A stretch of 64,000 bases of DNA from Candidatus Heimdallarchaeota archaeon (GTDB taxonomy: Archaea; Asgardarchaeota; Heimdallarchaeia; Heimdallarchaeales; Heimdallarchaeaceae). The notes under the pieces are model-generated. The model made no database searches and had not been told where the DNA came from. It was given only the letters and a program-made list of their open reading frames with translations. The stretch is taken from assembly GCA_021399345.1 (NCBI GenBank), contig JAAFKI010000154.1, positions 24,498 to 88,497 of the forward strand, given 5' to 3'. Below are positions 10,671 to 50,491 of the stretch, one piece after another (the stretch's first letter is position 1; the number at the start of each line of letters is the position of its first letter). The translations under genes and the position numbers were made by a program.

Positions 10671-10786
10671 TCAACTCTAACAGAAATAAGTTAGATGGAA
10701 AAAGGAAGCTAGCGCTACTAAGCTTGCCATATCATTAATAAGAATGCAACGTCTGAACCACCAAGCAGAGTAGGCAAGCTAACTTC
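10671..10786 (-). ncRNA. Candidate small RNA, panhandle family copy A
   Basis: GAAGUUAGC/GCUAGCUUC terminal stem, TTTTTATA box 21 nt upstream, 3' hairpin shared with copy B; homologous to 31932-32007 and 37564-37655. Confidence 0.6.
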
Positions 10787-10857
10787 AGAAGGATATGAAG
10801 AAAAGAGTATAAAAACACAAAAAAATTGAAACAATAATTGTAATTAAGAAGGAAGGA

Positions 10858-10934
10858 TGGCGCCGCTGGTAGGATTTGAACCTACGACCGATCGGTTAAC
10901 AGCCGATTGCTCCACCAGACTGAGCTACAACGGC
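10858..10934 (-). tRNA. tRNA-Asn(GTT)
   Basis: ATCGG-CT-GTT-AA-CCGAT anticodon arm, GTTCAAATC T-loop, CCA end. Confidence 0.96.
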
Positions 10935-21935: not shown

Positions 21936-23516
21936 TTAATCCACTTCATACCCACCGCCACCTGGAGTCTCAATAATTACTATATCACCCTTCTTAATTT
22001 CCTTGGTGATTTTAGATGGAAGACAAATTGATTCACCATCTTGTCTCAAGATATTGCGACCTTTAGAACCAGTTCCTCCACCCAGTAATCCAAAAGGAGA
22101 ATGCTCTCTTCTTTCACTTTGTATTGATAGTACAGCTTTTTCTGCTAACAACTCAACTGAACGACGGACACCATTACTCCCTTGCCATTTTCCTGAGCCA
22201 CCAGTATTAGGTATAATTGAGTATTCATGTATTCGCAAAGGATAATATCGTTCTAGAACTTCCACTGAAGTATTCCTAGTGTTTGTCATATGGCTGTGTT
22301 TAGCATTTGGAGGGACGTAATCCTTTCCTGCACCAATCCCTCCTGCAATGGTTTCATAGTAAGTAAATTGCACACCTTTAGGATTAATTCCACCAATAAT
22401 TATGTTATTCATCGTTCCACTACTTGCAGCAGGTACTTCTTCTGGGAACAATTGTGCAAATGATCCAATCATAACATCTGTTATTCTCTGACTTGTTTCT
22501 ACATTCCCAGCAGCTACTCCAGCAGGTGGCAAGGGATCCACTAAGGTACCTTTTTTGGTGATTACCTCTAAAGTTTCATAGAGCCCATAGTTTGTTGCAT
22601 AGTCTCTAGAAACTAAACAACGAAGAATGTAATATGTTGCAGAGAGCGTTACTGCATAAGGAGCATTGATGTTTCCATCTACTTGAGGGTCAGTTTTACT
22701 ATAATCAACAATAAGTTTGTCACCCTTTCTTTGCACTTCAGCTGTAATTGCAATTGGTTCTTCCGTCACTCCATCATTATCCATATAATCAGTATAGGTT
22801 ACAATTTCATTCTCAGGAATGGTTTTCACAAGATCCAAAGAAGCACTTCTTGATCTTTTATTCAAGAAATCTATTATTTTCTGAACCCTATCAAGAGAGT
22901 ATTTTTTCAAAAGAGCATGGAATTTTTTCTCACCAATCTTTGTAGAAGCTAATTGAGCTTGTATGTCTCCCTTCCGTTCATTTGGAACGCGAATATTGTC
23001 AAGAAAATAATCAAACCATTCTTGATTTAAAACACCATCTCTTTCCAGTATGGTTGGATCTATGACAAATCCCTCTTCCTCTAAAGTGTACTTTCCACTG
23101 GGCATAGAGCCGGGGACTACACCTCCAACGTCCGCATGATGGCACCTATTTGCAATATAACCTACCAATGTTCTTTCAAAGAAAATAGGTTTAACCACAG
23201 ATATGTCTGGAAGATGTGTTCCACCCAAATAAGGATTATTTGCAATGTAAATATCCCCATCCTTGATGTTATCCTCACCAAAATGTTTGATTAAAGCTTT
23301 AACTCCCTCTGGCATTGCACCAAGATGAACTGGAATGTGCTCTGCTTGAGCAATTAATCTGCCTTTGTGATCCATTATAGCACTTGAAAAGTCTAATCTA
23401 TCTCTGATATTGGGGGAAAAGGCTGACCGTTGAAGAACGATACCTGTTTCTAAAGCTACGTTCTTCAATGACTGATTAATGACTTGTGCCTCAATGAGAC
23501 TAAATTTAGAACTCAT
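21936..23516 (-). CDS. Hydantoinase B / 5-oxoprolinase subunit
   Basis: SPNIRDRLDFS, IPVHLG, GGTHLPD, HHADVGG, ETPGGGGY. Confidence 0.93.
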   Translation of the reverse strand: MSSKFSLIEAQVINQSLKNVALETGIVLQRSAFSPNIRDRLDFSSAIMDHKGRLIAQAEHIPVHLGAMPEGVKALIKHFGEDNIKDGDIYIANNPYLGGTHLPDISVVKPIFFERTLVGYIANRCHHADVGGVVPGSMPSGKYTLEEEGFVIDPTILERDGVLNQEWFDYFLDNIRVPNERKGDIQAQLASTKIGEKKFHALLKKYSLDRVQKIIDFLNKRSRSASLDLVKTIPENEIVTYTDYMDNDGVTEEPIAITAEVQRKGDKLIVDYSKTDPQVDGNINAPYAVTLSATYYILRCLVSRDYATNYGLYETLEVITKKGTLVDPLPPAGVAAGNVETSQRITDVMIGSFAQLFPEEVPAASSGTMNNIIIGGINPKGVQFTYYETIAGGIGAGKDYVPPNAKHSHMTNTRNTSVEVLERYYPLRIHEYSIIPNTGGSGKWQGSNGVRRSVELLAEKAVLSIQSERREHSPFGLLGGGTGSKGRNILRQDGESICLPSKITKEIKKGDIVIIETPGGGGYEVD

Positions 23517-31931: not shown

Positions 31932-32007
31932 GAAGCTAGCAAGAGAAATGAAGGGGTGGAAGCAATGCGGAGGTGAAAATCACCAGGCAGATATATTAGC
32001 TAGCTTC
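31932..32007 (-). ncRNA. Candidate small RNA, panhandle family copy C
   Basis: Perfect GAAGCUAGC/GCUAGCUUC stem, TTTTTAAG box 21 nt upstream, pyrimidine tail; interior homologous to copy A. Confidence 0.6.
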
Positions 32008-32091
32008 AGAATAAATACTGGTTTTATGCTTAAAAACCTAAAAAGAAGAATTGCTAATTAAAGGCAATGAATAATTTGAAGAAAGAAAAAT

Positions 32092-32180
32092 TGGAGCCCA
32101 GAGCGTGACTTGAACACGCGACAACAGGATTTCTGAGAATTCTCTTCAGTCCTGCGCTCTCCCAGCTAAGCTATCTGGGC
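32092..32180 (-). tRNA. tRNA-Phe(GAA) with 13-nt intron at 37/38
   Basis: CAGGA-CT-GAA-G[AGAATTCTCAGAA]A-TCCTG; CUGA/UCAG central BHB helix; CCA end. Confidence 0.93.
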
Positions 32181-37563: not shown

Positions 37564-37655
37564 TCAACTTCTCAAAACAGAATATAGGTTGAGATGGAGG
37601 AAGCTAGCAAAAAGTGCCTTTATGAGAATTATGTTAACGTTGTCTTGCTAGCCTC
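37564..37655 (-). ncRNA. Candidate small RNA, panhandle family copy B
   Basis: GAGGCUAGCAA/UUGCUAGCUUC 11-bp stem, TTTTTAAA box 22 nt upstream, 3' region homologous to copy A. Confidence 0.6.
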
Positions 37656-37708
37656 AAATATATAATATCGATAATTGTTTAAAAACACAAAAAAAAGTGA
37701 CATATAAA

Positions 37709-37891
37709 TCATCCAAAGAGGTTTTCAAAAGAAACTTGAGTCCAGTCTATTAAACTCATTATAATACCAAAAATAATTGCAAAAATGAGTATAGCTATGC
37801 CAATTAGCAAGATCTCCTCTAAGATAGGGCCACCTTTTTTGTTCTTCAATCTTAAACTTTTCAACATTCGAAAGAGTAACATTTTAGTCAA
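37709..37891 (-). CDS. Small class III signal peptide (pilin-like) protein
   Basis: KNKKG^GPILE (E at +5) followed by a long hydrophobic helix. Confidence 0.6.
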   Translation of the reverse strand: MTKMLLFRMLKSLRLKNKKGGPILEEILLIGIAILIFAIIFGIIMSLIDWTQVSFENLFG

Positions 37892-50382: not shown

Positions 50383-50491
50383 TGGTGCCTCAACCGGGAT
50401 TTGAACCCGGGTCTGCGGATATTCCTGCTTAGTCACGCGGACTTTCTCATGTGAAAGTCCGCAATGATTGGCCGAGCTACACCATTGAGGC
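50383..50491 (-). tRNA. tRNA-Glu(TTC) with ~31-nt intron (50421-50451)
   Basis: GCCTCAA acceptor, GCGGA-CT-TTC-A[intron]A-TCCGC, GTTCAAATC, CCA end. Confidence 0.9.

Follow-up and report, generated by a model that had tools for sequence, protein, structure and literature searches.

Three intergenic loci on the minus strand of the analyzed DNA, named copies A, B and C, are genuine members of a previously undescribed family of small RNAs. To judge from the genomes searched, this family is restricted to one genus of the Heimdall group of Asgard archaea, apart from a single copy in a sister genus. Its members are very probably functional RNA genes, and with moderate confidence we regard them as a new, genus-restricted family of independently transcribed antisense sRNAs that act in trans. 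The family is defined by a searchable signature and predicted transcription starts, and four of its types have concrete predicted targets supported by compensatory changes.

The window is the whole stretch of 64,000 nucleotides under study (G000:C88:24498-88497) and belongs to an assembly of 3.27 Mb with 33.5% GC, which consists of 199 contigs and is 88.6% complete. An earlier reading of the letters alone (the sequence-only reading) had described three minus-strand intergenic loci with a common layout, and the arms and coordinates of A, B and C were found as claimed. The features are as follows.

10705..10786, minus strand: sRNA gene of copy A, 82 nt from stem to stem, with a 64-nt interior
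10786-10778 and 10713-10705, minus strand: 5' arm GAAGUUAGC and 3' arm GCUAGCUUC of copy A
10808..10815, minus strand: TATA box TTTTTATA of copy A, at -29 to -22 from the first G of the stem
10671..10704, minus strand: 3' tail of copy A, CU-rich, with a T5 run (probable terminator) and then a small hairpin
10858..10934, minus strand: tRNA-Asn upstream of copy A (context)
31932..32007, minus strand: sRNA gene of copy C, 76 nt, with perfect arms GAAGCUAGC/GCUAGCUUC
32029..32036, minus strand: TATA box TTTTTAAG of copy C, at -29 to -22
32092..32180, minus strand: intron-containing tRNA upstream of copy C (context)
37600..37655, minus strand: sRNA gene of copy B, 56 nt, with arms GAGGCUAGC/GCUAGCUUC and a G-U at pair 3
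37678..37685, minus strand: TATA box TTTTTAAA of copy B, at -30 to -23
37709..37873, minus strand: paralogue P2, a pilin-like single-pass membrane protein, ending 53 nt before copy B

Within the window there are four occurrences of the exact 9-mer GCTAGCTTC, all of them inside copies A, B and C. UCUGCYUGGUG and a GCAUU at the same offset are indeed common to A and C, as had been noted before, and UCUGCYUGGUG recurs in related types. The position of A and C on the 3' side of tRNA genes could also be reproduced, with tRNAs located at both loci. As a trait of the family, tRNA adjacency was rejected: it was seen for A in four of six orthologues and for almost no other type. The tRNA at 32092-32180 (minus strand) has its intron in the anticodon loop and was left unnamed by ARAGORN, while it scored 54.6 bits in Rfam. 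A ninth tRNA of the window (50386-50491, minus strand; 106 nt, 47.1 bits in Rfam), which probably contains an intron as well, was missed by ARAGORN.

All three loci carry the expected TTTTTA(T/A)(A/G) box at -29/-30 to -22/-23 from the first G. In alignment A1, which comprises 62 sequences representing the non-redundant copies of the genus, a TATA box is present at the same distance in essentially every copy. The genus-wide form of this box is GTTT(A/T)(A/T)A(A/T) at -31 to -22, accompanied by an AT-rich element at about -12 to -5, and the arrangement is found in one direction only. The promoter columns T6, T7 and A10 are invariant in A1, as is most of the stem. On the 3' side of the stem there is a pyrimidine-rich stretch, with T-runs 2-30 nt past the 3' arm. 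With both promoter and T-runs present at the copies, the loci have the makeup of independent transcription units outside coding sequence. Since the TATA box stands at a fixed distance before the stem, the predicted transcript starts at the stem itself; promoter anatomy and conservation likewise suggest that the loci are transcribed and where both RNA ends should lie.

The two arms form an uninterrupted, perfect 9-bp helix. Across the 62 copies 99.5% of the stem cells are paired, and in the direction defined by the promoter 22 cells are G-U pairs versus 3 that are unpaired. The substitutions in the stems of A and B are G-U pairs on the minus strand, in line with the sequence-only reading, and its proposal that the constant stem is under selection at the RNA level gains support because the 22 G-U cells would be A-C mismatches on the opposite strand. 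By count, the G-U cells represent at least 10 independent events, almost all of them in the 5' arm. Double substitutions in the stem were not found among the 62 copies of A1, and classical covariation is limited to a copy on contig C144, in which an A-U pair is replaced by G-C. Therefore, the case for RNA-level selection is built on the wobble asymmetry, one compensatory copy and the conserved pairing arms. The sequence of the stem is invariant over about 10 types and 25 genomes, while the interiors diverge. This exact conservation of GAAGCUAGC/GCUAGCUUC exceeds what end protection requires; end protection would be the minimal explanation and a dedicated binding protein the more interesting one.

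A coding function was considered and rejected, as orthologues do not share the short ORFs of the interiors. A conserved ORF was found on neither strand, and among the orthologues of copy C the frame is lost. The multi-copy class of non-coding RNAs, transcribed from the minus strand, that had been suggested for these loci is supported.

In the 3.27-Mb assembly the paired stem pattern matched only four times, the fourth match being copy D (C192:45105-45168). A looser scan revealed a fifth copy (C144:24422-24502), which is the one with the A-U to G-C exchange and has the arms GGAGCUAGU/GCUAGCUCC; with the covariance model R1, just the four close copies were recovered from the genome, but not this one. 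The genome-wide pattern search, which had been proposed along with the three loci, confirmed that the family is real. The expectation of many more copies genome-wide turned out to be too high, as the assembly has 5 copies and related genomes contain 1-5 each. Of the 25 genomes of the genus, 19 contain the exact pattern GAAGCTAGC-N20-120-GCTAGCTTC, and none has its reversed control. When up to one mismatch was allowed, 22 of the 24 other genomes of the genus contained 1-5 copies each. The same search was positive in one of six genomes of sister genera, where the copy is homologous to a type within the genus, and in about 0 of 52 genomes elsewhere in the class (83 class genomes overall), with one probably spurious match; the reversed-pattern controls gave 0-1 matches. 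The statement that no known Rfam family is involved held as well: only tRNAs matched in the window, in the region of copy A and on the contig of copy D, at gathering thresholds and even at E values up to 10. C/D boxes and an ACA motif had been reported as missing, which fits with the lack of an Rfam match and a 3' flank that is CU-rich and not ACA. A function as rRNA guide was tried and discarded, as complements to 16S and 23S rRNA of the closest relative (G013) were no longer than those of shuffled queries.

Among the positional types, D, D', F and H are orthologues across clades with identical stems and diverged interiors, and the same applies to C and C', all of which are located upstream of a PNPOx-like gene. 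Copy A has orthologues in six further genomes, in which the RNA is 92-98% identical and the 3' flank has diverged, and its 64-nt interior is almost invariant in the seven genomes. A consensus fold of the A group and of the C group contained nothing conserved except the terminal stem; therefore, the interior is best seen as an open loop. All D, D', F and H copies are convergent with a gene of about 100 aa ending in ...PF(I/V)(S/A)GG. The C-terminus of this neighbour (e.g. L034, L053, L071, L036, L040) extends to ...IIPF(I/V)(S/A)GG, and the 3' tail of the D/D'/F/H sRNAs may reach into the end of the gene in antisense orientation. A diglycine C-terminus is typical of ubiquitin-like or ThiS/MoaD-type proteins.

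A genome-wide complement search with the interiors returned two perfect 16-nt matches at gene starts, one for B and one for D. The loop of B has a core (AACGUUAACAUAAUUCUCAU) that is antisense to both the 5' end and the start codon of a stand-alone gene for a 60-61-aa protein, P1 (G000:C115:98955-99137). The exact 16-nt match places the core UUAACAUAAUUCUCAU opposite AUGAGAAUUAUGUUAA, the very start of P1. The TATA box of P1 is located about 22 nt upstream, so the leader of the P1 mRNA should comprise at most a few bases. P1 is the best partner of B among 9,565 candidate start regions (z -6.5); apart from B, RNAduplex energies tell little, as long looped duplexes exaggerate them. In 11 genomes the B-type sRNAs form 13-20 continuous pairs with P1, covering -9 to +10 around the AUG. 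The 5' end of P1, GAGAAUUAUG, is unchanged in 21 of 22 genomes amid variable flanking sequence, and two sets of changes are compensatory. The third base of codon 2 of P1 is A, U or G in three clades, and the sRNA carries U, A or C opposite to it. In G004 the leader has changed from GAGAAUUAUG to GAGAACUAUG, and the type J sRNA of this genome reads UAGUUCUC and not UAAUUCUC. For non-cognate pairs of sRNA and start region, the longest complement is 5-8 nt.

The small proteins of the P1 family have 54-63 aa and are hydrophobic with a single membrane pass. P1 itself starts with a basic N-terminus, and the G(G/S)PILEEILLIG... that comes next is similar to a pilin-type signal. Matches of the family to Pilin_N are below the cut-off (E 0.015-0.035), SecE is sub-threshold too, and Class_IIIsignal and Flp1_like are weak leads from the atlas. 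At 21 of the 70 loci a paralogue of this family ends 45-73 nt before the sRNA on the same strand. None of these 21 sRNAs matches its own neighbour, but each matches another paralogue. Type E lies behind P3 and, in five genomes, forms 15-17 bp with the beginning of P2, and type B lies behind P2 and pairs with P1, the ancestral stand-alone gene. In G004 and G007 type L pairs over 13 and 10 bp with the paralogue adjacent to J, and J pairs with P1; G001 contains a weaker, three-tier version of this relay. In G013 a type-E sRNA and P3 are located 88 nt past the 3' end of the 23S rRNA in convergent orientation (G013:C12:79186-79245, 79333-82910). The assembly of the window has neither rRNA genes nor type E, probably owing to the same assembly gap.

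The idea that the variable interior addresses targets is thus borne out for types B, E, J and L, whose targets are the 5' ends of mRNAs of paralogous small membrane proteins and which show compensatory changes. That these four types act by pairing at mRNA 5' ends is likely in our view. As the pairing is positioned at the start codon, we infer repression as the sign of regulation. A strong archaeal promoter, made up of a TATA box (about -30 to -23) and a proximal AT-rich element, would direct transcription to start at or beside the first G of GAAGCUAGC. The extreme 5' end of the RNA would then close on GCUAGCUUC via the 9-bp stem, and the pyrimidine-rich tail with its T-runs would end the transcript. 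The stem would protect both RNA ends, serve as a handle for a partner, or both, and the largely unstructured interior of 34-70 nt would be the working part. The interiors of B, E, J and L would block the initiation of translation by pairing over 10-20 nt with an mRNA at its 5' end and start codon, and A, C and D may act likewise on other mRNAs. In the proposed relay, an sRNA gene located 45-73 nt behind one paralogue would target a different paralogue (E to P2, B to P1). A constitutive B would permanently silence the conserved P1, which would be odd; therefore, we assume that the sRNA promoters are regulated.

The small-protein family is found in 70 of the 83 class genomes, mostly as a single copy, with extra copies in this genus and a sister genus, and the P1-family genes of sister genera have ordinary leaders with a Shine-Dalgarno site. 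P1 looks like a conserved housekeeping gene, and the cassettes of paralogue and sRNA look like a genus-specific, added layer of control. This bears on the possibility that the cassettes are type I toxin-antitoxin-like modules, in which a hydrophobic membrane toxin and a downstream sRNA antitoxin are wired across paralogues. The anatomy is close: as in the bacterial systems, an sRNA lies beside a gene for a small hydrophobic membrane protein and pairs with the initiation region of such a gene. The size and single membrane pass of the targets, the antisense position at the translation start and the tight linkage at the 21 loci would all suit such modules, and the bacterial systems comprise trans-pairing neighbours, e.g. 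dinQ/agrB (PMC3567139). Despite this close anatomy, the class-wide and housekeeping-like occurrence of P1, mostly stand-alone and without an sRNA, weighs against a plain toxin-antitoxin function. Furthermore, the protein has a weak pilin-type N-terminus, the sRNA pairs with the other paralogue and not with its own neighbour, unlike in the bacterial systems, and most members of the family (A, C, D, I and K) are not located beside such a gene. We therefore consider toxin-antitoxin modules improbable. According to the abstract of a 2025 study (PMC12390103), type I systems had until then been known from three bacterial phyla only; if this is right and the small proteins should prove toxic, the cassettes would be an archaeal type I toxin-antitoxin system.

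For A and C, exact-word, mismatch-tolerant and duplex-energy scans of the 88.6%-complete assembly yielded chance-level matches only. The top complements of A are 11-13-mers at chance level, one of them inside a TnpB-like ORF. At G000:C199 ~22470-22750, the sequence CCACCAAGCAG complements the A motif CUGCUUGGUGG over 11 nt; it is part of a GC-rich stretch that can be read as an 86-codon ORF but has more the look of a structured RNA. Copy A is similar to B in its central stretch (ACGUUGCAUUCU) and in both flanks, which are alike over about 40 nt on either side. Therefore, A probably arose long ago by duplication of a B-like cassette and was then retargeted. A covarying hairpin downstream of A and B, which the sequence-only reading had put forward, is broken in several orthologues of both copies, and the similarity in this region looks like shared ancestry of the flanks rather than conserved structure. 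That A itself works by pairing at mRNA 5' ends is a tentative proposal, with slightly less than an even chance. The interior of C contains a GGUGA/UCACC hairpin, the sequence CACCUCC, which is identical to the 16S rRNA 3' end, and CCACCCC. CACCUCC is partly sequestered in this hairpin, whose pairs co-vary in G006.

Copy D pairs over 16 nt (UAAAAGAUGGGGAUAA) with the GGGGAU ribosome-binding region of gene G000:C169:91663, which encodes a 142-aa protein with no family assigned (region G000:C169:91644-92088; L137:745-1192). The GGGGAU site of this gene is invariant in 23 genomes. The pairing is kept in G009 and G013, with one G-U in G013, and weakened without compensation in G011, G018 and G006. 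Because of these three genomes, we rate the ribosome-binding region of the 142-aa protein gene as a plausible target of D only. A general anti-Shine-Dalgarno sponge based on AUCCCC was ruled out as a candidate function, since the usual ribosome-binding site in this genome is AGGUGAU and GGGGAU occurs at only about 13 candidate start sites. Upstream of copy D, at the end of its contig (G000:C192:45169-45259), the promoter of the orthologues is replaced by partly GC-rich sequence. An Rfam match was not found for the replaced stretch, which may stem from a rearrangement or from a join made in assembly.

Another function has to be weighed as well, namely that of stable RNP RNAs resembling Y RNAs or vault RNAs, in which the stem binds a dedicated protein and the interior, at least that of A, C and D, is not used for base pairing. 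An invariant stem combined with diverging interiors, strong and uniform promoters and the lack of identified targets for A and C would fit this function, and the near-invariance of the A interior in seven genomes is what one would see for a structured or protein-bound RNA. Like eukaryotic Y RNAs and bacterial YrlA, the family has few paralogues per genome, a conserved end stem, a variable pyrimidine-rich interior, its own promoter and a T-run terminator. In contrast to Y RNAs, the stem is free of the bulges by which the Ro site is defined, a tRNA-like module is missing and interiors are antisense to mRNAs. A search for Ro60/TROVE (PF05731) gave no match in the 88.6%-complete assembly G000, while control genomes responded. 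The likeness to Y and vault RNAs raised by the sequence-only reading does not hold as a family membership, with no Ro60 gene, a bulge-free stem and nothing in Rfam. In addition, the consensus fold shows no conserved interior structure, and four types have clear antisense targets, although a protein handle and base pairing are compatible. Taken together, we give RNP RNAs without base pairing little probability, about as little as the toxin-antitoxin modules.

Two further explanations concern the terminal stem itself. It brings the RNA ends together, which raises the possibility of processing or circularization, as in the bulge-helix-bulge substrates of the archaeal splicing endonuclease. But the perfect 9-bp helix does not contain the two 3-nt bulges of this motif, and a stem that begins at the predicted transcription start leaves no leader to be cut off, which makes processing very improbable. 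The inverted-repeat termini with their palindrome GCTAGC and the shared flanks of A and B, suggestive of cassette duplication, could also be taken as signs of DNA-level elements, either MITE-like repeats or paired protein-bound palindromes, but this explanation is largely refuted and scarcely credible, given the low number of 5 copies per genome, their fixed orthologous positions in different species, flanks in which target-site duplications were not seen, a one-directional promoter at every copy, substitutions that are G-U in this direction and interiors under purifying selection.

Antisense sRNAs acting in trans thus remain the preferred explanation, and with its unusual constant clamp and the paralogue relay the family belongs to this kind of RNA. 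sRNA162 of Methanosarcina mazei is an archaeal trans-acting sRNA which masks a ribosome-binding site (PMC3510493). The loci described here are likewise intergenic with their own promoter, and their RNAs pair over a short antisense stretch with the translation start of an mRNA encoded in trans, for which repression is predicted. There is no relation to sRNA162 in sequence or Rfam, and unlike sRNA162 they form a paralogous family with one invariant closing stem made from the RNA ends, have 5'-terminal targets on near-leaderless mRNAs, contain members chained to paralogues of their targets and are known from sequence alone. RsaE/RoxS and LhrC are bacterial families of sibling sRNAs with C-rich seeds, in which the seed is conserved and the scaffold varies. 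The family shares with them the presence of multiple copies in a low-GC genome and C-rich single-stranded stretches (AUCCCC, CACCUCC) that fit G-rich ribosome-binding sites. In contrast to RsaE/RoxS and LhrC, it is the scaffold stem that is invariant here, and the seeds differ between paralogues.

A catalogue of regulatory sRNAs in Asgard archaea was not found in the literature searched. The design of the family, an invariant stem formed by the extreme ends around a free antisense loop, is unusual and suggests a stabilizing clamp or a protein handle. The targets of B, E, J and L further suggest that near-leaderless archaeal mRNAs can be addressed at the 5' end by sRNAs, and the paralogue relay on a conserved pilin-like membrane protein represents a small, testable regulatory circuit. 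A more far-reaching and rather unlikely possibility is that the invariant stem is the handle of a dedicated protein and that exchangeable loops on a constant scaffold allow programmable RNA-guided silencing of translation. If true, such a system would exist in close archaeal relatives of eukaryotes, and one of its uses would be a relay in which each new surface or membrane-protein paralogue brings along an sRNA that silences the previous one, so that expression is mutually exclusive.

A comparable arrangement was observed outside the genus. In a sister genus the small pilin-like gene is followed, about 75-135 nt after the stop codon, by a different fold-back that is preceded by its own TATA box and has arms of approximately AUCAACAUUUCUC/GAGAAAAAUGUGAU (L162, G042:C5:14830-15891; L163, G041:C12:51400-52461). 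This fold-back may be an analogous sRNA with another closing stem.
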